DNA of 64,000 nucleotides, from positions 124,235 through 188,234 of the forward strand of contig JBCCHT010000028.1 of NCBI GenBank assembly GCA_039028615.1. The letters are read 5' to 3'. Shown here one piece after another: positions 1,187-64,000 of this stretch. The translations under genes and the position numbers were made by a program. Each line of letters opens with the position of its first letter. Position 1 is the stretch's first letter. A model generated the notes under the pieces. The model did no database searches and was not told the origin of the DNA. It saw only the letters and a program-made list of their open reading frames with translations. Source of the stretch: Myxococcota bacterium. GTDB taxonomy: Bacteria > Myxococcota_A > Polyangia > Nannocystales > Nannocystaceae.

Positions 1187-4093
1187 CTACAGCTTCTGCT
1201 CAATCCAACCATTGACGCGTTGTGCCATCGGCTCATTGCCGAGTTCACTGAATCCCTTCGCCGCCTGCTCGGCCAGCGTCCGCGCCTCGGCGCTACGCTC
1301 CGCCGACGGCCCGGGCTGCGCCACCAGGACCTTCGCGAGGTTCCAGCGGAGCGCATTGAACATCGCCGGGTTCTGCGACAGTCCTCGTGACACCCCGAGC
1401 GCGCGCCGAATCGTGCGCGCCGCCTCTTCGTAGTCCCCTTCGGACGCCTGCAAGCTCCCCAGGCCGTACAGCGGGTAGATGAGGCGCGGGTCGTCGGGCT
1501 CGGCGTGCTCGTCCAGCACCCGCAGCGCCCGCTCGTAGCGTGGCCGGGCGCGTTCGAACTCCCCCTTGGTCATGAAGCAATCGCCCACGTTGCTGTCGAG
1601 CATGCCCAGCTCGACCTGGTTGGGGCTGGCCATGCTCCGCAGGGCCTCCGCAGACCGGTCATAGGCACCGATGGCGGCGTCGATGTCTCCCGCCATACGG
1701 TGCAGGCTCGCCCGCAGCATCCACGCCTCGCTGGCGAGCATGGGGGAGACCCGAGGCCCGAGGCTGCGCTCGATGAGGTCGGCCTGCGTCGTCGCCTCCT
1801 CGATCTCGCGATGCGTCTGGTGGATCCGCGCCAGCTTCAGGCGGCTGCGGATCGCCGATGGCGTGGACTCACCGTAGATGCCCACGCGAAGCTCGATCGA
1901 GCGCAGCAGCAGCGGGCGCGCCTGGTCGTGGTCCCCTCGAATGAAGTGTAGGTAGCCCTTTTCGTCGCACAACGCCGCGACCATCGGCAGCAAGCTCTCG
2001 CGCTCCGCGACCTCCAGAGCCTCATCGAATACCGCGAGCGCCTCGTCGTCTCGTTTTGCGTCCCGATACGCCCGCCCGAGCAACATCAGGCCGCGCGCGA
2101 GCTCGAGCTCGTGGCCCGGTCCCGCCTCGCGACGCCACGCGGTGGCTTCGACGAGGGCCTCGGCCGCCGCGTCGTGCTGCTTGCGAAACGACGCCACCAT
2201 CCCCTCGAGCTGCTGTGTGGTGGCCACCGCATCGGGGCCCGCCGCCGACAGCTTGCCGCGAAGGCTGGGCATCCATGCATCGATGGCCGACGCGTCGCCC
2301 TCGTCCACGGCCACCGCCAGCAGACGGCGCAGCGCGTCGACGGCCAGCCCCTGGTCACCGGAGGCCTCCGCCATCTGCAGCGCCAACGCGAGGTCCTCGC
2401 GAGCTTCCTGTAGGCGTCGGGCCCAGCGATAAAGATGACCGCGGTTGTACAGAGCCTCGGCCAGCAGGCGCGGCGCCTCGTCCAGCGCCCTCGCCTGCTC
2501 GACCGCCGTCTCGGCCTGATCCAAGCCACGCGCGCCCTCACCCGCCGCCTGCGAGACCCAGGAACGAGCAATGGACGCCCGGACATCTCGCGCGGGGCCC
2601 TCCAACGCCGCGGGCACGGGCGAAGGGCCGCGATGCAGGGCTTGTTCGTCGTTGCACTCCTGCAACGAAGGAAGGCTGCGCACCAGGGCCGCAGCGTGAG
2701 CCGCCGTGCTCGCGTTCGCCTGCGCCAGCTGCTCGACCACCGCCTCGAGCCCCACGGAGTGGCGATCGAGGCACGCCATGCGTAGGGCCAAGGTCTCGTC
2801 CCCCGCCCGGTGGTGCACCCGTGTCTGCATGCACGCGTCCATGCGCGCGTCGGACCACTGCTCCGCGTAGCGCGACAAGTGGGTCTGCGCCTGCTCCCAC
2901 GCGGCCGTGCCCCGCTCGGCATCGGCCGCCTCGAGCCCCGACCGAACCGCGGTCTCGTCGGCATCGGTCCAGCCCGGCACCTCCGCCTCGGCCAGCGTCT
3001 CGCACGGGCGCTCGTTCCACATCGCAAACGAACCCGCCGCGACCGCGCCTCCCACCGCCCCGAGGGCTCCGAGTCCGAACACCGCGCTGCGGATCCGCCG
3101 TCGCCGTCGAGGGACTCGCTCAAGTTCATCGAGCAAGGCCCGCATGCTGTCGAAGCGCTCCGCCGGCTCGGGTGAGAGGCCTCGGAGCACCACCTGCCGC
3201 AGCCAGGGCGGCACCACGCCGGGGAACGGAGCTTCGCGCGGCTCGATGCACTGCTGCTCCTCGATCGCCACCAGCAAGGCGCTGGCCGTCCCGCCCGCGA
3301 AGGGCCGCACGCCGTACAGCGCCTCGAACAGCGAGACACAAAAGCCGAACTGATCACTGCGAGCATCGGCCCCGCGTCCCCGCAGCTGCTCGGGAGCCAT
3401 ATACGCCACCGTGCCCAGCACCGTGCCCGGTCGCGTCAGCTCCAAGGCGAGCGCCGAGCCCCCGGGATTGGTCTCGAGGGTGTCCGGTTCGGACTGGGCG
3501 TCCTCGCTGCGATCCCGCACGAGCCCGAAGTCCAGCACCCGCACCCGCCCCTCGTCGTCGATGATGCAGTTGGCGGGCTTGAAGTCGCGGTGCACCATGC
3601 CCTCGCCGTGGGCCGCCACCAAGCCGCGCCCCGCCTGCGTATAGACCTGCAGGCACGCTCTCCACCCCCGCGGCTCGGCTTGCCACTCGCGAAGCGTCTG
3701 CCCCGAGACGAGCTCCATCGCGATGAACAGGCGCCCGTCGAAGTACCCCGTCTCGTAGACCTGCACGACGTTGGGGTGCGACAGCTTGGCCAGCGCCTGG
3801 GCCTCGCGGAGCAGCCGTTGTTCGTGCTGACGACCGGTATCGGTGTGCAGCACCTTGATGGCGACCTTGCGCCCCAGCGTGTCGTCGTAGCCTTCGAAGA
3901 CGGTCCCCATGCCGCCCTGCCCCAGCCGCCGCGCCACCCGAAAGCGACCGAGGGTCGGCGCGAGCTCGGGCTTGTCGAACAGCGCCGCCCGCATGCGAGC
4001 CTTGCGAAGCTCTCGCATCGCCCCCGGAGAATTCCCGGGCGGCTCCGGCGTCGGTGAGGCGGCCAGCTCGTCGTCGACACGGGTCTCGTCCAC
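1187..4093 (-). CDS. membrane Ser/Thr protein kinase with C-terminal TPR repeats
   Basis: GQGGMG, VAIK, HRDFKPAN, DFG and YMAPE motifs; RRRRR then a TM helix, a Cys-containing segment and TPR-like helices. Start chosen at GTG 4093 (GGAGG upstream); 4135 or 4213 also possible. Confidence 0.92.
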   Translation of the reverse strand: MDETRVDDELAASPTPEPPGNSPGAMRELRKARMRAALFDKPELAPTLGRFRVARRLGQGGMGTVFEGYDDTLGRKVAIKVLHTDTGRQHEQRLLREAQALAKLSHPNVVQVYETGYFDGRLFIAMELVSGQTLREWQAEPRGWRACLQVYTQAGRGLVAAHGEGMVHRDFKPANCIIDDEGRVRVLDFGLVRDRSEDAQSEPDTLETNPGGSALALELTRPGTVLGTVAYMAPEQLRGRGADARSDQFGFCVSLFEALYGVRPFAGGTASALLVAIEEQQCIEPREAPFPGVVPPWLRQVVLRGLSPEPAERFDSMRALLDELERVPRRRRRIRSAVFGLGALGAVGGAVAAGSFAMWNERPCETLAEAEVPGWTDADETAVRSGLEAADAERGTAAWEQAQTHLSRYAEQWSDARMDACMQTRVHHRAGDETLALRMACLDRHSVGLEAVVEQLAQANASTAAHAAALVRSLPSLQECNDEQALHRGPSPVPAALEGPARDVRASIARSWVSQAAGEGARGLDQAETAVEQARALDEAPRLLAEALYNRGHLYRWARRLQEAREDLALALQMAEASGDQGLAVDALRRLLAVAVDEGDASAIDAWMPSLRGKLSAAGPDAVATTQQLEGMVASFRKQHDAAAEALVEATAWRREAGPGHELELARGLMLLGRAYRDAKRDDEALAVFDEALEVAERESLLPMVAALCDEKGYLHFIRGDHDQARPLLLRSIELRVGIYGESTPSAIRSRLKLARIHQTHREIEEATTQADLIERSLGPRVSPMLASEAWMLRASLHRMAGDIDAAIGAYDRSAEALRSMASPNQVELGMLDSNVGDCFMTKGEFERARPRYERALRVLDEHAEPDDPRLIYPLYGLGSLQASEGDYEEAARTIRRALGVSRGLSQNPAMFNALRWNLAKVLVAQPGPSAERSAEARTLAEQAAKGFSELGNEPMAQRVNGWIEQKL

Positions 4094-4240
4094 GGTCCTC
4101 GGCCTCCGCACGAGCCGAACTCGCGCAGCATCCATGGTAGTCGAAGCGTCGGTGCTCCGCGGGTGACCCGGCCTCACATCCAAAGGAGTGTCGCGACCCC
4201 GGATCGGGATCACGGCCGCCGTACGAACGTCGTTCGCCCG

Positions 4241-4858
4241 TCAGGACGGGGACAGAGCGAGGTCGCGGACTTGGGCGGCCCAGCCATCGAGCCCGCCGAG
4301 GGTGCTGTCGGTCATGGCCTGCTCGGTGGACAGCTCGGCGATCACATCGTGCAGCCGCTCTCGAGCCCGACGCATGCGACTGCGGACCGTGCCCACCGGG
4401 AGCTCGAGGACCTCGGCGATGTCGTTGGTGGTCATCGTCTCCCAGTAGTGCAGCTCGAGGATCATCTGCAGATCCATGGGAATGCGCCGCAGCGCCTCGA
4501 CCAGCAGTCGCTCCTCTTCGCGCCGATACAGCATGGTGCTGGGCCCAGGAGCGAGATCGTGGGCCGAGCACGAGTCGAAGCTGGCGCTGGCGCTGCCCGC
4601 TTGCTTCTTGCGGATGTAGCCGCGCAGCACGTTGCAGGCCACGCCATACATGTACGCCCGAAAGCTCGACCCTTCACGCACCCGGTCACGGCCCCGCACA
4701 CAGGCCATGAAGGTCTCCTGCACCAGGTCGTCGGGATCGCCGCTGACCTTGTTGGCAAAGAACCTCGAGATGGGATCGAAGTAGCGCTCGAAGAGCTGCT
4801 CGCCCGCGTCCTTGTCCCCGTTGCGCCACCCCTCGAGAAGGGCTGCATCATCTACCAC
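4241..4858 (-). CDS. ECF-type RNA polymerase sigma factor
   Basis: Sigma2 region (DDLVQETF...SSFRAYMYGVACN) and sigma4 region (IAEVLELPVGTVRSRMRRARERL); GTG start at 4858 within the long ORF 4241..5923. Confidence 0.9.
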   Translation of the reverse strand: MVDDAALLEGWRNGDKDAGEQLFERYFDPISRFFANKVSGDPDDLVQETFMACVRGRDRVREGSSFRAYMYGVACNVLRGYIRKKQAGSASASFDSCSAHDLAPGPSTMLYRREEERLLVEALRRIPMDLQMILELHYWETMTTNDIAEVLELPVGTVRSRMRRARERLHDVIAELSTEQAMTDSTLGGLDGWAAQVRDLALSPS

Positions 4859-34264: not shown

Positions 34265-34669
<405 letters not shown>

Positions 34670-38026: not shown

Positions 38027-39166
38027 ATGCGGGTTCGTCTGGGGTTGGTCTGTCTGTGGCTCGTGCCCGCGTGTGGGGACGACGGGGAACGCAGCGAGAC
38101 CGCCTGGGAGCTGCCGGGCAGCAGCACGGGCTTCGATGCGCCCGGCACCACCGCCCTCGACCCGGACACGGGCGGTATGGGCACGGGCACGGGCGACACC
38201 GGAGACGACGAGGGGCTCGACGAGTCCTCGTCCGGCGGCGAGAGCTTCGACTGCACACCCGCATGGACCTCGACCTTCGTCGGCTCGCCCTGTGCCGCCG
38301 ACTCCGACTGCAGCTACGACGGCGGCTTCTGCCTGCTCGAGGACGACGGCTTCCCCTGCGGCACCTGCTCGCAATCCTGCGAAGACCTGTGCCCCGACCT
38401 CGAAGGCGCCCCGACCACCTTCTGCGTGGACGGGGACTCGCTGATGGTCGACAGCGGCGGGCACTGCCTGTCGCAATGCGACCCGCCGCTACTGGGGGGC
38501 AACGGGTGCCGCGACGGCTACGTCTGCAGCCCGATGAGTCGCTACATGCAGCCCAAGGTCACGGCCGGGGTCTGCGTACCCGAGCCCTTCGGCGGTGAGG
38601 GGGCCACGGCGTGCCAGCAGATGTTGCTCGACCTGGGGGCGGTGTTCGTGCCCGTGGATCACGAGCCGGAGAGCCCGGATGGGCATCCCGATCTGCTGTG
38701 CGAGATCGAGGACCCGGTGTTGCTGTACAGCCCGATCGGGGATGTGTCGATCCGGTACATCGCGTCGGCCGAGGAGGCGCCCGTGTTCATGGGGTGCAAT
38801 GCGGCGGTGTCGGTGGTGGGGAGTGCGGCGGTGGCCGGGAGCTTGGGGGCGACGGAGCTGCTGCACATCGGGACGTACAACTGCCGGACGATTTCGGGGA
38901 CGAGTACGCTGTCGCAGCATGGGTATGCGAATGCGATCGACATCGGGGGGTTCACGTTGGAGGACGGGACGGAGATCACGGTGTTCGATGATTGGGAGGA
39001 TGGGAATCCGAGTCCGCAGACGGAGTATGGGCAGTGGTTGCGGGAGTTTACGGATCAGGTTTGGGCGATGGGGTTGTGGAACATCATCCTGACGCCGGAG
39101 TACAACGCGGCGCATGATGACCATTTTCATATTGATCTGACGCCGGGGGGGAACACGTACGACTGA
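38027..39166 (+). CDS. lipoprotein: Cys-rich domain plus extensin-like C-terminal domain
   Basis: LVPA|CGDD lipobox; GTYNCR...LSQHGYANAIDI...HDDHFHID. Confidence 0.88.
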   Translation: MRVRLGLVCLWLVPACGDDGERSETAWELPGSSTGFDAPGTTALDPDTGGMGTGTGDTGDDEGLDESSSGGESFDCTPAWTSTFVGSPCAADSDCSYDGGFCLLEDDGFPCGTCSQSCEDLCPDLEGAPTTFCVDGDSLMVDSGGHCLSQCDPPLLGGNGCRDGYVCSPMSRYMQPKVTAGVCVPEPFGGEGATACQQMLLDLGAVFVPVDHEPESPDGHPDLLCEIEDPVLLYSPIGDVSIRYIASAEEAPVFMGCNAAVSVVGSAAVAGSLGATELLHIGTYNCRTISGTSTLSQHGYANAIDIGGFTLEDGTEITVFDDWEDGNPSPQTEYGQWLREFTDQVWAMGLWNIILTPEYNAAHDDHFHIDLTPGGNTYD

Positions 39167-39217
39167 CGGGGTTGGGCTTCGTGGCGGTGGAGTTTGTTTT
39201 GAGGTCGGGCGGGGGGT

Positions 39218-39391
39218 TTGAGCTTCGTTGGGGGCGCCTGTTCGCGGGAGTCGGGGTTCCGTCCGTGCTCAAACAGTGGTTTCGCGCCTAGCCTCAGCGT
39301 ACCTACGCGCTCGCATCGGTGGACTCCGATTGGTTGTGGGGAGGCTGCTACCAAAACTGCGCGCGCACGGAACCCCGACCCCCACGAGCGG
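39218..39391 (+). repeat. dispersed structured repeat, copy A
   Basis: Core 39266-39363 is 86/98 identical to 63853-63949; stem arms 39246-39265 / 39364-39383 pair at 18/20 positions. Confidence 0.9.
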
Positions 39392-39535
39392 CGCGTCTTT
39401 GCTCGAAGCTTCCCGGGGGTTTCGGAGTTGCGGTTTGGCTTGGGCGAGCGGAACGCTTCGAGAGCCGAACGCAGCAGCATGCCGCGGTGGGGCGGCGCCG
39501 ACCATCAACTGTCCCTTGGGATCGGGCGCCATTGG

Positions 39536-39658
39536 TCCGCGTGAAGCGGGAGCCGCTCGTCGAGGCGAACAGGCGACCTGCCACACCGGCACGCCAAACT
39601 GGCCGCCGACCCGAGCGCCCGAGCTGAATCGACTCGCGGCTGCCCCCACGAAGCTCAA
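39536..39658 (-). repeat. dispersed repeat, copy B (inverted, hairpin core absent)
   Basis: Reverse complement matches both flanks of copy C (63776-63833 and 63963-63994), joined at a single CGCC (39564-39567). Confidence 0.85.
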
Positions 39659-40404
39659 CGATCGGGCGGTGCTTTGGCTTCGACGCGGACTTCGATTTCT
39701 TCGTCGCCGAAGTCGCCCTGCACGTGCTTGATGTCGATCCTGGCGTGGGCGGGGTCGAAGCCTTGGGCGAGGAGTTCGGCGAGGATTTGGCGCTCGGCTG
39801 CTTCGACGCCGTCGCGATCGAGGGTGAGGTCGAGGAGGTTTCGAGACAGCTTGCCGCCGAGGGTTCCGTGGACGGTACCCGATAGGGGGACCTCTTGGAT
39901 TTCGGCTTCGGCCAAGGCGGGGAACTCGTCTTGGAGTTCTTGCCAGCCCTCTTCCACATTGGCCTCGCCCCCGAAGGCGAAGAGCTGGAGGCGGACTTCT
40001 TCGTGGACGTCGACCTCGCCGTCGGGTCCGGTGCGCTCTTCGATGGCGCGCGACATGTGGATCTCGACGCGCTCGGCCGCGAACTCGTCGCGGAGGTAGC
40101 GGGCGATGGCCTCGGGGTCGACGTCGTCCATGTGCTCGGCGTCCACGGAGATCTCGAGGCCGTGGCCGAGGCTCATGGGGTACTCGGCCGGCAGGGCGCA
40201 GGCTCCCACGGCGGTGGCGAGGGTGAGGCCGCCGGCGATGGCGATGCGGGGCAGCCAGCGCTTGCGCTGTTTGGCGGGCTCGCGACCGGGGGCGCGCTCG
40301 AAGGCGGCCATGAAGGCATCCTCGTGCGCACGCTGGTGCTCGGCCTGCCCAGGCGCGGGGCGGCGATACCAAGACTTCAGTCGGGCGATGAGATCAGATC
40401 GCAT
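39655..40404 (-). CDS. putative membrane-anchored anti-sigma-type protein
   Basis: ATG overlaps the end of the ECF sigma gene; short cytoplasmic N-terminus, one TM helix, acidic extracytoplasmic domain. Confidence 0.7.
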   Translation of the reverse strand: MRSDLIARLKSWYRRPAPGQAEHQRAHEDAFMAAFERAPGREPAKQRKRWLPRIAIAGGLTLATAVGACALPAEYPMSLGHGLEISVDAEHMDDVDPEAIARYLRDEFAAERVEIHMSRAIEERTGPDGEVDVHEEVRLQLFAFGGEANVEEGWQELQDEFPALAEAEIQEVPLSGTVHGTLGGKLSRNLLDLTLDRDGVEAAERQILAELLAQGFDPAHARIDIKHVQGDFGDEEIEVRVEAKAPPDR

Positions 40405-40981
40405 AGCCAGCGGCCTTGTCGTTGGAGGAATCGCGAAGCTTGGCTCGCAGGTCGCGGAGGGTTCGGGAGAAGCGTTGTTTGACGGCGGCCTCGGACAGCT
40501 CCATGAGCTCGGCGATCTCGCGCAGGCGCAGGCCCTCGGCAAAGCGCAGGGAGAACATCTCGCGGACTTCGGGGGAGTAGCCGGCCAACATGACGCGCAG
40601 CTCGGCGTCGCGCTCGTCGTCTTCGAGGGCCTTGGCCGGATCGAGCGCGGCGTCGGCCAAGCGCTCGACGGCATCGGCATCGCCGGCCGCCTTGTGCACG
40701 CGGTAGTGATCGATGACGGCGTTGCGGGCGATGCTCAGCACCCACGCCCGCACGTGGCCCCGCCGCGGGTCGAAGCGTGGCAGGTGCTCGACGACGCGCT
40801 CGAAGACGCGGGCGACCAGGTCTTCGACGTCGGCCTCGGTGTGAATCCGTCGCGACACGTAGCTCCACACGAGCGGATGCATTGCTCGGTAGAGCTTGCG
40901 AAAGGCCGTGGCGTCGCCCGCCGCGGCCGCTTGGGCGAGGCGGGATAGGCGCACGGCGGTGAAGGTTCCGCGCAGCGACAT
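40394..40981 (-). CDS. ECF-type RNA polymerase sigma factor
   Basis: DVEDLV, WVLSIARNAVIDHYR and EIAELMELSEAAVKQRFSR motifs. Confidence 0.92.
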   Translation of the reverse strand: MSLRGTFTAVRLSRLAQAAAAGDATAFRKLYRAMHPLVWSYVSRRIHTEADVEDLVARVFERVVEHLPRFDPRRGHVRAWVLSIARNAVIDHYRVHKAAGDADAVERLADAALDPAKALEDDERDAELRVMLAGYSPEVREMFSLRFAEGLRLREIAELMELSEAAVKQRFSRTLRDLRAKLRDSSNDKAAGYAI

Positions 40982-40995
40982 CGCTCGACCCTCGG

Positions 40996-41556
40996 CTACG
41001 AACCCCGCACGGTTTGGTGACACACCTCGTCGGCCAAATCGAACACGTGGGCATCGTCGTCGCGAGTCGCCCCCAGACCTTGCAGCGCCTCGGCCAAACG
41101 AATGACGTACTCGTCGTTGGGGCCGCTGGGTCCCTCGCTCCGACGAACCTGCGCCGCGATCTCGGGGATCGGGGCCGGCCCCGCGAAGTTGGGGTTGTCC
41201 TCGGTGGCCAGGTACATGACGACGTCGGGACGCTCGGTGCCGTCGGGAAAAACGACGGTGGTGCTGACGCGCCGATAGCCGCCCTTTTCACGGTGATCGA
41301 GCCGCGCGAGCACGGACTCGACCGCATCGGGAGCCACCCGATACGCCATGCCCCAGCAGCGCGCGTCGGCGACGGGCACGAGCGTCACCACCCGCCCGGG
41401 GCTACCCGGCACGCCGCGGTGATCGGTCGAGGCCTGCCAGAACCGACGCGCCCATCCATGGATCCAGCCGGCCTTGCGCTCGACGAAGGGAAACGCCGGG
41501 CGCCAGACCAACGAGCCGTAGCCAAAGATCCACAGGTCGTCGTCGGGGGAGGTCAT
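40996..41556 (-). CDS. ChaC-like gamma-glutamylcyclotransferase
   Basis: WIFGYGSLVW, DHRG...PGRVVTL, REKGGY and GPSGPNDEY motifs. Confidence 0.92.
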   Translation of the reverse strand: MTSPDDDLWIFGYGSLVWRPAFPFVERKAGWIHGWARRFWQASTDHRGVPGSPGRVVTLVPVADARCWGMAYRVAPDAVESVLARLDHREKGGYRRVSTTVVFPDGTERPDVVMYLATEDNPNFAGPAPIPEIAAQVRRSEGPSGPNDEYVIRLAEALQGLGATRDDDAHVFDLADEVCHQTVRGS

Positions 41557-57094: not shown

Positions 57095-60000
57095 CCCACC
57101 TGCATCGATACATCGAGGACAACGGCACGCTCTACCCGGAGCAGCTCGCCGAGGCCTTGCGCCGCCAGCAGATCTACGGCGGCAGTCTCGATACGGTGTT
57201 GCTCGAGCTGGAGCTCATCGACCCCAAGACGGTCGGCGAGCTGCTCGAGCGTGCCTGTGGTTTTCCTGCCGTCCCCATCGAGCTGCTCGACAACGGACTC
57301 GAGCGCCCCTGGGACGAGATTCCCGAAGACCTGCAGCGCTCCCGATGGGTCGAGCCGCTCGGCAAAGACGGCGACGAAATCCTGGTCGCGGTGCACCCCG
57401 ACCTGCCCAATGATCTGCTGGGCGGGTTGCTGCGCAGCGTTCGGCGTATCCGCCCCATGGTCACGCCCGAGTGCTGCCTCGAGAAAATCGCGGCCGAGCG
57501 CCACGGCTCCGTGGTCCCGCAGCGCTACGCGATCTTGTGCGCGTCGTATCTCAGTGCGCTCCGCCGACGGCCCTCCGTCTCTGGCGTGCACCCCACCGCC
57601 CGCGCCGAGGCGCCGTCCTTCGAGCCGCCCTCGACCCCTACGCTCGACGAGAAGACCGGCAGCGCGACCAGCTCGGGCGACGACAGCACCGCGGCCGGCA
57701 TGATCGACGTGCAGGAGACTCCGCCCGTCGACATTCCCAACGCCGACTCGGGGCCCGCCGATCCTTCGGAGTCATCGCCCTCGCGTCAGACCCTGATCGC
57801 CAGCGGACCGCCGCCGGCCGGGCAAGGACCGGGTGCCGCTCCTTCGCCGCGCCCCCGCGTCCCTCGACCGCCGAAGATCACGGTCAAGGCCGAGCCGCAG
57901 CCCGAGACCGAGCCCGAGCCCGAGCCTCAACCCGAGGCCGAGCCCCCGTCGCGGCAGCCCACGGGCGAGTGGGATCCCAGCGCCGCCCTGCCCACGCCAG
58001 ACGCACCTCCGCCCGCCGCCGCGCCGCTGGAGCGAGACGAGGGCGACGTACGGCGCCGCCTCGAGCAGGCCCGTGCCACCCTCGAAGCCGCCCGCTCCCG
58101 CGACGATGCGCTCGAAGCCATCGCCAACGCAGCGATGGTGCTATCGCCTCGGGTGGGCTTGTTCCGCGCCCGCAACGACGAGCTCATGGGGCTGAGCACG
58201 CCCCGCAGCCTGCTGTCGGATCTCGGGGGCAAGATCGTGGCCGCGCCCGAAGGCTCCGCCGCCCATCAGGCGCTGCACGAAGGGTCCTTCGTCGGCACCA
58301 GCGAAGAGACCGACCTGCAGCTCGCCACGGGCATCGATGTCGACACGCCCTGTGCCCTGCACCGCGTCGAGGTCCGCGGTCGCGCGGTGGTCGTGGTCTA
58401 CCTCGATCGCGACGGAGCGCCCATCGGAGACGACGACCGCGAGTGGCTCGGCGACATCGCCACCCTCGGCGGCAACGTGTTCGAGGAGATTCTCAAGCTA
58501 CGGCGGCGCTCCGGTGGTTCGAGCACGAAGATACCCGTCGCCAAGACCGACGAGCCCGACCCCAAGAGCCCCCCGAAGCTCGGCGACGTGCCGGAGCTGC
58601 GCTGGAACCCGCCCTCGGCTCGAGTCCGGGCCGCCTACGGCGACGACGAGCCCGCGTCGGAGGATCCGCCCACGCCCGTCGAGCCGGTCTCCAGCTCACG
58701 TGTGTCTCGGGGCAGCGGTGCCGCCGTGCCGCCGTCGCTCGTTCCCCCCGAGAGCGCGACGCCCGAGCCGGACTCGTGGCGGCTGACGCCCGAGCTCGCC
58801 GCCCAGGCGCTGGAACAGCGAGACGACGAGACCGAAGCACCCGCCGAGGACGACGCGGAGACGAGCGAGCACGCGGAGACGAGCGAGCCGGCTGTCGCCG
58901 ACGACGACGCGGACGAGACGCCCGCTGTCGAAACACCGGACGCCGAAGAGAACGCGGCGCCCGAGGAGACCGACGACGCCAACGAGACGGCAGAGCCCGC
59001 GCCCGAGCCCGAAGACGACGACAAGTTCTACGAGGTCACCGACGACGACGATGACGAGACCTCGTTCGCCGACCCCCCTGCCGCGGCCAGCGACGACGAC
59101 GAGACCTCGTCCACCGACGCCACGCCGAACGACGACGACGAGACCTCGTTCGCCGATGCCAACCCCGACGACGACGAGACTTCGTTCGCCGACGCCAATC
59201 CCGACGACGATGACGAGACCTCGTTCGCCGACGCCGATCCCGGCGCCGACGACTCGACGACGGCCAGCAGCGAGACCAACGACGAAGCCTCGGAGCCCCA
59301 GCCCGAACCCGAGCCCCAGCCCGAACCCGAACCGCAGCCCGCTCCCGAGCCTCGCGCCACGCTCGAGTACGAGGACATCCCGATCCGCGCCAGCCTGCGA
59401 CCGCACTCGGGCGCCGACGAGCAAGCCGACCCGGAGCCCAAGGCCACCCTCGAGTTCGAGGACGTCCCGCTCCCCCACCGCACCAAGGACATCACGGAGC
59501 GCAACGCCATCGCGACGGCGTTGACGCACACGGTCCCCGACGAGCCCCTGCCCTCCGATCGACCGACGATGGAGCTGTCCAGCGGCGGCCTCGATGGCGC
59601 AGGCGACCCGCCCGACGCCGCGGAGGAGCCCGACGACGGCACGCCGAGCGACGCCGACACCGAGGCGGTCGAGCCCGAGGTTCCGTCGGCCGGCAGCTCG
59701 CTGAGCCGCTCCACGGTGGTGCCCGTGCCACCGCCCTCGGACGAGGCTCCCCTGCCGCCGCCCCCCGAGGCTCCTTTGCCGCCGCCGCCCCCGTCGGCCG
59801 TCGACGAGATCGACGAAAACGGCGTCCGTCGCCCGCGTAGCTCGACCATCAGCGGCCTGCCCCCGCCCGAGCTGGGCAACCGCAGCGGAGCGACCAAGCG
59901 CGTCATGGGCAACCCGGCGGGCGAGCAGCTGCCCCGCGGGGACGAAGAGGTCGAGATCATCCCGCTCGCCCAGCCGATCACGCCGGCCACCGCCCGCGGC

Positions 60001-61926: not shown

Positions 61927-63675
<1,749 letters not shown>

Positions 63676-63697: not shown

Positions 63698-63735
63698 GCG
63701 AGCGCGGTCCGTTGGATCGCGCTCGTTTTGCGTTT
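63698..63735 (+). terminator. intrinsic terminator after ffh
   Basis: 12-bp stem 63699-63710 / 63714-63725 followed by TTTTGCGTTT. Confidence 0.8.
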
Positions 63736-63749
63736 GGGGGTGCGCGAAG

Positions 63750-63994
63750 TTTGGGGAGGCGCGAGGAGAGCCTGGTCGGGCGCTCGGAGCTTGGGGAGGT
63801 TTGGTGTGCCGGTGAGCAGGTCGCCTGTTCGCCGAGGCGTGGGTACCGGCCGTGCTCAGACAGTGGTTTCACGCCTAGCGGCAGCGTACGTAGGCGCTCG
63901 AGTTCGTGGACTCCGATTGGTTGTGGGAAGGCGCTACCAAAACTGCGCGCGGCCGGTACCCACGCCTCGACGAGCGGCTCCCTCTCCACGCGGA
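63750..63994 (+). repeat. dispersed structured repeat, copy C (may continue past the window end)
   Basis: Perfect 20-bp inverted repeat 63833-63852 / 63950-63969 enclosing the 97-nt core shared with copy A; flanks shared with copy B. Confidence 0.9.
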
Positions 63995-64000
63995 ACACCA

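Follow-up and report, generated by a model that had tools for sequence, protein, structure and literature searches.

Two hairpins that lie just past the ends of genes in a 64,000-nucleotide stretch of a Myxococcota genome (Nannocystaceae; contig JBCCHT010000028.1, positions 124,235 to 188,234; here called the window) belong to a multi-copy, non-coding family whose members contain a bulged helix that recurs, letter for letter, in genomes labelled as several phyla. The window corresponds to C28:124235-188234 of the 12.3-Mb genome G000, and its position 64000 is also the end of the contig. We read the element as a mobile, non-coding gene-end hairpin resembling the repetitive extragenic palindromic (REP) sequences; folding is predicted for its gene-sense strand, with RNA as the most probable form, and its bulged helix would be the docking site of a putative host factor. 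We give this reading about an even chance of being correct. The element belongs to a known kind, the interspersed gene-end hairpin repeats, and what is unusual about it is the cross-phylum recognition motif.

A dispersed hairpin family and its bulged helix

A first-pass annotation of the window, made from the sequence alone, had described hairpins A and C (Table 1) as two copies of a dispersed, structured element, and its counts were reproduced. The left arms (39246-39265 and 63833-63852) are identical at 12 of 20 positions, seven of the eight differences have a compensating change in the right arm, and the stem is paired at 18 of 20 positions in A (the others being one A.C and one C.C) and at all 20 in C. 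The cores, of 98 nt in A and 97 nt in C, have 86 identical positions and one 1-nt indel. The extensions of the stem that had been proposed, outward through CTGTTCG/CGAGCGG and inward through TGC/GCG with G.U pairs, are present in both minimum-energy folds (-91.4 kcal/mol for A and -99.3 for C; z -4.65 and -5.77), and none of 200 dinucleotide shuffles folds as stably as these hairpins. The likeness of the two copies is well beyond chance (nhmmer E 8e-48 and 3e-50), and each does lie 3' of a plus-strand gene, A after that of an Extensin-like_C protein and C after that of Ffh (SRP54).

The genome-wide search which that annotation had called for, carried out with blastn and an nhmmer profile, revealed 20 family members rather than two, and a conserved unit of ~300 bp that exceeds the hairpin (150-165 nt) and holds it in its middle. 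Nineteen of these places are whole and one is cut by the start of contig C2. The nhmmer profile gave 22 rows at E <= 1, of which 20 are real (E <= 4.6e-20) and two, at E 0.21 and 0.66, are noise. The copies are spread over contigs C1, C2, C7, C12, C14, C17, C28, C45 and C91; four of them are at or near contig ends (the end of C28, C91, C12 and the start of C2), and thus the repeat breaks the assembly. Seven loci are inverted pairs of modules, always plus then minus, so that the 5' ends point outward. Their arms (229-372 bp) are 88-94% identical within a pair, modules from different loci are 70-88% identical over about 290-300 bp, and the spacers (221-641 bp) are not alignable between loci; that of the C17 pair (L015 about 3958-4589) has its own ~70-bp tandem repeats, unrelated to other spacers. 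One identical 18-nt stem is found at three loci (six hairpins), in modules that are 12-17% diverged, and other loci differ at eight or more of 20 stem positions. The stems are therefore inherited lineage marks, not sequences made anew at each site. An origin of the stem from the target or the flank was rejected: in this genome the 18-nt variable stems match only the hairpins, plus scattered sites with two mismatches. The genes around the 12 loci are mutually unrelated and mainly of the housekeeping type, including those for a PP2C phosphatase, GcvP, EF-G, GroEL, Ffh, glucokinase, a sigma-54 activator, a TolB-like protein and a dynamin-like GTPase. Four of the seven pairs are approached by convergent genes from both sides, and in all seven the right-hand gene points inward.

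With the module as query, blastn found matches in the same genus only, in 4 of 41 genomes including G000. A covariance model built from the 19 whole hairpins extended the family to five of the six genomes of the genus (G000 and the relatives G001 to G005), with 15 matches in G002, 9 in G005, 4 in G004 and 3 in G003, and none in G001, which is 72% complete. In the relatives too, most copies form plus-then-minus pairs. When the flanking open reading frames (ORFs) were mapped to G000, an EF-G/DUF5689 locus proved common to G000 and G005, and a GroEL-side locus to G000 and G002; at three sites that carry an element in G002 or G004, G000 has an empty intergenic gap of 87-122 bp (Table 1). At the EF-G locus the genes of G000 and G005 are 75-88% identical, the elements can hardly be aligned (72% over 85 nt), and each element is most like the other copies of its own genome. 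The presence and absence of copies at orthologous sites, the species-specific subfamilies and the patchiness argue for a mobile or actively turning-over element. In G004, an IS256-family gene (Transposase_mut, PF00872, E 6.5e-125; L041 1683-2894, that is G004:C56 about 171372-172583) splits the left hairpin of a module pair into a 5' part of 98 nt and a 3' part of 55 nt, at a site whose G000 orthologue is empty. It was rejected as an autonomous parent of the family, being a separate insertion that splits a single hairpin.

Within the genus, variation affects the stems and the greater part of the core, and two stretches are constant: a 5' one, CCGTGCTCARACA, and a 3' one, AACTGCGCGCG. A pattern scan for these stretches 55-85 nt apart, with one genome per species, found the exact pattern in at least 116 DNA stretches, from which about 230 are estimated for the whole collection; the matches listed come from at least 43 assemblies, as counted by accession prefix. 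The carriers are labelled as Myxococcota or 'Deltaproteobacteria' (Polyangia, Nannocystaceae, Kofleriaceae, Haliangium), Coriobacteriia (Adlercreutzia, including one isolate, Collinsella, Eggerthellaceae and Atopobiaceae), Actinomycetes, Planctomycetota and Omnitrophota. Many carrier genomes are multi-copy, and convergent pairs recur among the matches listed. No match to the pattern was found in a collection of viral contigs. Among 151 genomes of the class, a reversed control pattern occurred in none and the exact pattern in at least 4, which is a lower bound because the gap used there, 40-70 nt, excludes G000's own copies (gap 79).

All of the examples that were folded (15 of 131, spread over the taxa) or read have one architecture. 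From the outside inward, it consists of a variable outer stem (median about 24-25 nt per side), a CCGUGC/GCGCGG helix with a U.G pair, a 5' UCARA bulge facing a single C, a CAG/CUG helix, an AA bulge in the 3' strand, and a variable inner stem with its loop. The motif proper, ~25 nt in two parts of 13 and 11 nt, is asymmetric and the same letter for letter across the labelled phyla, and the flanking stems differ at most positions. Invariance of the motif columns in the 43 rows derived from the pattern holds by construction. The 43 genus hairpins were found by the covariance model and not through the pattern; all 43 have the U of the U.G pair and 40 have its G partner, the three exceptions being variants from G005 that have lost one base of the 3' half. 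The inner core came out unpaired when RNAalifold was applied to 40 genus sequences.

Two variants of the architecture were observed. Metagenome-assembled genomes (MAGs) of Atopobiaceae (L165, L167), and L163, have minimal versions of the motif, ~45 nt long, with an inner stem of 3-6 bp and a UAC loop, adjoined by partial tandem repeats of the motif's 3' half. In one Polyangia MAG (L082, L101, L105, L128, L134), the whole ~620-bp element is a foldback palindrome; at its centre a long hairpin stands between an A-run and a T-run and reads, by eye, like a bidirectional intrinsic terminator between convergent modules.

Covariation of the outer stem was evaluated on a set of 62 hairpins that combines 19 of the genus with 43 of other assemblies. 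Double-sided changes occur at 24 of 28 pairs, and 82.5% of the stem cells are paired when bulges are disallowed. The covariation score is 0.48-0.52, a value reached by none of 500 shuffles, and it falls to at most 0.23 when the partners are slid out of register.

Strand, orientation and the choice between RNA and DNA

The element is not equivalent on its two strands. The motif contains a U.G pair, a U/C mismatch and one-sided bulges, which on the opposite strand become a C.A and other bulges. In G000 the plus strand of the modules has the more stable fold in 14 of 14, by 27.9 kcal/mol, and in the wide set it is the more stable in 90 of 130 cases. The module flanks in G000 are G/U-rich, and their predicted helices lean on G.U pairs. 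Orientation relative to genes was determined for 94 hairpins at 80 loci from other assemblies, taking the nearest ORF within 250 nt. Of the ORFs 5' of a hairpin, 39 share its strand and 6 have the opposite one; of those 3' of it, 8 share its strand and 15 do not. With no limit on distance, the 5'-side ORF is in the same sense in 51 cases, in the opposite sense in 23, and 19 gave no call. The neighbours in these assemblies are again housekeeping genes, often highly expressed: rpoC, ClpB (in two genomes), IF-1, SecDF and, in Adlercreutzia, Ffh. At three loci in two MAGs (Table 1), a convergent pair lies directly 3' of the 5S gene in a 23S-5S rRNA operon, and the hairpin nearer to the rRNA has the sense of the operon. 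In Adlercreutzia, the motif starts 39-60 nt past the stop codon in the clearly sense cases. The copy of the Adlercreutzia isolate at L132 2501-2579 follows ffh at a distance of 60 nt, and copy C too is found behind an ffh gene; this may be a coincidence, there being about nine copies in that genome.

Four features of this arrangement favour RNA as the acting form. The hairpins of a pair are each sense to their own gene, which the direction of replication cannot explain. The copy A locus joins modules of two different subfamilies in the same tail-to-tail arrangement, each sense behind its own gene. The flanks of the module depend on G.U pairing, which is weak in DNA. Lastly, the arms of the Polyangia palindrome face a central hairpin with A- and T-runs, and something that looks by eye like a bidirectional terminator makes sense only if the arms are transcribed. 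The main rival keeps the mobility and dispenses with any role for RNA: a selfish element would act purely as single-stranded DNA, its hairpin extruded from one strand when the DNA is replicated or repaired, and recognised in trans by a nuclease or recombinase (HUH-type, Xer-type or other), and the sense orientation would reflect a choice of target, for instance terminator hairpins. Although the first and the last two of these features speak against it, and neither does a Y1/HUH gene track the element nor is a recombinase found nearby, this rival stays serious because the stems are palindrome-like and because modules directly follow terminator-like hairpins, a possible target preference. The stems are long and nearly perfect, with G.U making up only ~3% of the paired cells in the 62-hairpin alignment. 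That the DNA extrudes is suggested by the loss of a hairpin through slippage between 4-nt repeats, seen in the partner module of copy A (see below). The breaking of assemblies at copies, the foldback palindrome of the Polyangia MAG and the patchy spread over taxa fit such an element as well. On the whole, we regard a purely DNA-borne element as possible, if on the unlikely side.

Another explanation starts from the neighbours. The hairpin might be a host-beneficial RNA element of 3' ends, either a processing or stabilising hairpin comparable to the RNase III signals of phage T7 or a non-canonical terminator, selected gene by gene, with its spread being secondary. The 39 sense against 6 antisense positions behind genes, the typically highly expressed neighbours (rRNA operons at three loci, EF-G, GroEL, Ffh, rpoC, ClpB and IF-1), the distance of 39-60 nt from stop codons in Adlercreutzia, and the convergent pairs, which supply both flanking genes with a sense hairpin, would all be expected of it. 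Orthologous genes in sister species do without the element, however, and the exact pattern matched only the 4 of 151 class genomes given above as a lower bound. The hairpin also lacks a U-tract, canonical terminator-like hairpins already stand ahead of several modules, and the likeness to RNase III signals is a putative one. We therefore hold selection at each gene to be an improbable origin of the family, whereas a role in RNase III-type processing, or as a 3'-protective hairpin, is plausible by analogy.

In the working that we propose for the mobile, RNA-acting hairpin, new copies would arise by copying of the whole hairpin, as the three loci with one identical 18-nt stem suggest. The stems would need only to pair, and their complementarity would be maintained by this structural requirement, helped by correction of the palindrome at the DNA level. 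The bulge 5'-UCARA-3' facing a single C, between the CCGUGC/GCGCGG and CAG/CUG helices, would form a site present on one strand and read by a trans-acting factor. Each module would end up sense behind 'its' gene, and a tail-to-tail pair would offer a sense hairpin to transcription from either side. A bolder version, which we consider rather doubtful, is that the element is a protein-free, horizontally spreading structured replicator, which would invade gene ends in several bacterial phyla by offering its one invariant bulged helix to a universal host enzyme, or else that it represents a class of 3'-end RNA, new and widespread, that has a binding protein of its own. At the opposite extreme, the element might have no function, the palindromes being made and kept by replication errors and the motif by recent common descent alone. 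The stems do behave as DNA palindromes and hairpins are lost by slippage, but the asymmetric motif of 13 and 11 nt is identical across labelled phyla in surroundings of mostly different stems, and palindrome correction would erase an asymmetric bulge unless it were selected. We consider the lack of any function very improbable.

Several points weigh against the reading that we prefer. Terminator-like hairpins with U-rich tails, recognised by eye, separate the module from its gene at ffh and EF-G, and do so on either side of two pairs, so that the module may be reached by read-through only; at the two pairs these hairpins belong to the inverted repeat itself. (A terminator and promoter scanner reported nothing at copy A or at the EF-G pair; it missed a hairpin and T-run readable by eye and was not relied on. 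In the pair spacers of G000, a custom script found only weak terminator candidates, unlike the central hairpin of the Polyangia family.) The family hairpin itself is not a canonical terminator because it has no U-tract, and that identification was rejected: six or more T occur in the next 12 nt in only 3 of 112 hairpins, the mean being 2.2-3.7 T. The variable stem gives little support to selection at the RNA level and fits upkeep as a DNA palindrome, G.U pairs being barely commoner than A.C mismatches (119 versus 89, ungapped, in 141 distinct hairpins). The first-pass annotation had named two outcomes that would undo a functional structure, a lack of covariation across more copies and homogenisation of the arms by intra-hairpin conversion only; covariation holds across the 62 hairpins, and the second objection keeps part of its force, since these counts suggest that it may be mainly processes at the DNA level that keep the arms complementary. 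The claim of a functional structure rests, for this reason, more on the invariant, asymmetric bulged helix than on the stem. The energy gain of the plus strand is partly due to G+T richness alone. The ORF calls behind the orientation counts are crude, being based on GC content by codon position, and copies within a genome are not independent. Most carriers are MAGs, and the phylum labels are those of the depositors. Intergenic DNA is too diverged between species to fix the borders of insertions; with no target-site duplication seen and no enzyme linked, mobility is argued from presence/absence and patchiness alone. Finally, no RNA run is listed for the locus, the single run listed being marine-metagenome DNA.

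Known systems and nearest analogues

Rfam 15 has no family for the hairpin. At E <= 10 the locus gave only weak matches of plant miRNA-precursor models to the long hairpin, and at E <= 0.01 fifteen loci of other taxa gave only rRNA and the same miRNA model. No description of the motif was found in the full-text literature, subscription journals being outside the coverage, and blastn against a plasmid collection gave no match to the element. Thus, the picture of a dispersed, unannotated element with covarying stems, an asymmetry in favour of the plus strand and no Rfam counterpart was borne out; the two origins that had been suggested for it, from a retron or from an HUH transposase of the RAYT type, were not. 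No reverse transcriptase, transposase or recombinase gene adjoins any copy in G000, and no such family was matched by 125 neighbouring ORFs in other genomes.

A retron msr/msd, or another reverse-transcribed element, had been suggested by the long hairpin with flanking inverted repeats, and myxobacteria are known retron hosts. The sole RVT_1 match in G000 (C16:159887-160522) is on a contig that has no copy, and a family of twenty scattered copies, arranged in inverted pairs, does not resemble retron loci. We attach hardly any credence to this origin, and the assignment to retrons was rejected. Membership of the REP/REPIN-RAYT system was likewise rejected: the family does form extragenic inverted pairs (seven), with flanking genes converging on them, but PF01797 is found in two of the six genus genomes and not in the carriers G003, G004 and G005, and the one match to this family (Y1_Tnp) in G000 is weak (25.6 bits) and lies on C13, a contig devoid of copies. 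A derivative of an IS200/IS605-type (HUH) element, or PATE, would have unlike hairpins at its left and right ends, on one strand, and a Y1 transposase in the genome. It does not fit either, as a single module, inverted, makes up both ends of the pair and the element is tracked by no Y1 transposase. [quoted passage not shown] No target-site duplication was found at the seven G000 pairs or at five Polyangia elements, a weak result given that the borders are not sharp, and the search for a parent insertion sequence returned no recurrent cluster of neighbour proteins other than ABC transporters, synteny of close relatives and spurious ORFs across the element's own repeat; the family was not assigned to this type.

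Integron attC sites also lie 3' of genes, have extrahelical bases and conserve structure rather than sequence; they act as single strands, and their R''/R' consensus is RYYYAAC / GTTRRRY. This consensus is absent from the motif as read (no attC model was run), there is no integrase among the neighbours and, unlike attC sites, the elements do not form cassette arrays; the identification was rejected. Likenesses to boxA, to the inverted repeats of the Tn3 family, to the RNA of the signal recognition particle, to the substrate of the hairpin ribozyme and to kink-turns were judged superficial. The RNase III signals of phage T7, such as R1.1, consist of a lower stem, an asymmetric internal loop and an upper stem; a universal host enzyme reads them in the form of RNA, and they leave a protective 3' hairpin after cleavage. 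A similar succession of parts may be made out in the intergenic hairpin described here; unlike the T7 signals, the elements are chromosomal, multi-copy and dispersed.

REP, BIME and REPIN elements are hairpins, often in inverted pairs, that have no transposase of their own and are mobilised by RAYT (TnpA-REP). REP elements are described as non-coding, multi-copy and extragenic at gene ends (PMC2817692). The present element has all these traits (non-coding, multi-copy, gene-end, hairpin, inverted pairs, no transposase of its own). It differs in the size of the hairpin, which is 150-165 nt as against 20-40 nt, in having a conserved bulged helix on the loop side and a variable stem, the reverse of the situation in REPs, and in being tracked by no RAYT and common to several phyla. 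Short inverted repeats at the termini and duplicated targets are features of the Correia elements of Neisseria. Correia-type and ERIC/IRU intergenic repeats are described as imperfect palindromes of about 100-170 bp near gene ends (PMC2759123). Like the enterobacterial ERIC/IRU and the Neisseria Correia elements, ours is a MITE-like imperfect palindrome, intergenic and near gene ends; unlike Correia elements, it shows no duplication, and the ~300-bp modules themselves form the inverted pair. The nearest analogue that we found in the literature is a motif of Mycobacterium named TRIT, for 'tuberculosis Rho-independent terminator' (Gardner et al. 2011), likewise a sequence-conserved, many-copy gene-end hairpin, present in 147 copies in M. 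tuberculosis and tightly tied to gene termini, for which the authors suspected an extra binding factor (PMC3152330). TRIT is reported only from Mycobacterium; it is a palindrome, acts for the most part in both directions and overlaps the stop codon (around -8) (PMC3152330); as compared with that description, the motif here is asymmetric, lies past the stop codon and occurs in several phyla.

REP, ERIC, Correia and TRIT are each confined to a narrow group and, where understood, depend on a dedicated enzyme; here the stems, loops and flanks are particular to each species, yet the motif recurs across labelled phyla. Such conservation, in a multi-copy, patchy and non-coding element, points to a conserved partner. 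The motif would be a clean handle for finding this putative partner, and one carrier is a cultured gut isolate (Adlercreutzia), which gives direct experimental access. For annotation, the elements explain assembly breaks and unannotated intergenic blocks of ~1 kb in large myxobacterial genomes. Should the replicator version prove true, the element would be a bacterial counterpart of a SINE- or viroid-like parasite.

The two loci and other features of the window

Module A starts ~10 nt past the stop codon of the Extensin-like_C gene. It represents the 'A' subfamily, to which three C1 copies and the one cut off by the start of contig C2 also belong. Its reversed partner, of the main subfamily, begins 10 nt past the stop of the minus-strand ORF that ends at 39655 and lies downstream of an ECF sigma gene (40394-41023). 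The junction at which this partner has lost its hairpin reads CCTGTTCGCC|TCGACGAGCGG, with the break between two CGCC direct repeats, and this is the residue that slippage across a hairpin would be expected to leave. If module C has a partner, it would be beyond the assembly break; an overlay of contigs from the marine-metagenome run on the window end gave a repeat-tangled graph, together with a short contig past the contig end, and no information on such a partner.

Table 1. Coordinates of the gene-end elements, their motif halves and adjoining genes in the window, and of selected sites elsewhere
Feature	Sequence	Position	Strand	Remarks
Hairpin A	window	39238..39391	+	outer CTGTTCG/CGAGCGG, 20-bp variable stem, 98-nt core
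Module A, ~290-bp conserved unit	window	39175..39460	+	G/T-rich 5' flank, hairpin and 3' flank
Motif 5' half, copy A	window	39263..39275	+	CCGTGCTCAAACA: P2 strand, UCAAA bulge, CA of P3
Motif 3' half, copy A	window	39355..39365	+	AACTGCGCGCG: AA bulge, CUG of P3, single C, P2 strand
Upstream gene of copy A	window	38027..39166	+	379 aa, Extensin-like_C domain
Reversed partner module of copy A	window	39513..39645	-	main subfamily; hairpin deleted
ORF converging on copy A locus	window	39655..40392	-	coding-like by codon-position GC content; no Pfam family
Hairpin C	window	63825..63977	+	variable stem paired 20/20
Module C	window	63753..64000	+	interrupted by end of contig C28 at window position 64000
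Motif 5' half, copy C	window	63850..63862	+	CCGTGCTCAGACA
Motif 3' half, copy C	window	63941..63951	+	AACTGCGCGCG
ffh (SRP54), upstream gene of copy C	window	61927..63675	+	
Terminator-like hairpin	window	63700..63737	+	GAGCGCG...CGCGCTC then GTTTTGCGTTT; between ffh and module C; read by eye
Empty site orthologous to a filled one	G000, C31	64147-64241		
Empty site orthologous to a filled one	G000, C11	121375-121497		
Empty site orthologous to a filled one	G000, C8	17788-17875		
Pair at rRNA operon	L056	3003-3106		
Pair at rRNA operon	L129	3585-3688		
Pair at rRNA operon	L084	2935-3021		

Some further features of the window were recorded. The 3' end of ffh (63484-63584) contains repeats of 9/18 bp that encode a G-M-P-G-M-G-G tail directly before the stop codon. 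The only match to Rfam in the window at the gathering score is a full-length bacterial RNase P RNA of class A (34272-34658, minus strand, 225 bits). Between 24758 and 26518 lie ~11 diverged repeats with a period of ~150 bp (147-162 bp) and 60-79% identity; they are rich in GCA and ACA, that is, in cysteine codons on the minus strand, which suggests a gene for a long repeat-domain protein. In addition, about six 39-bp repeats at 59007-59279 code, on the plus strand, for acidic units of the D-D-D-E-T-S-F/S-A-D type.

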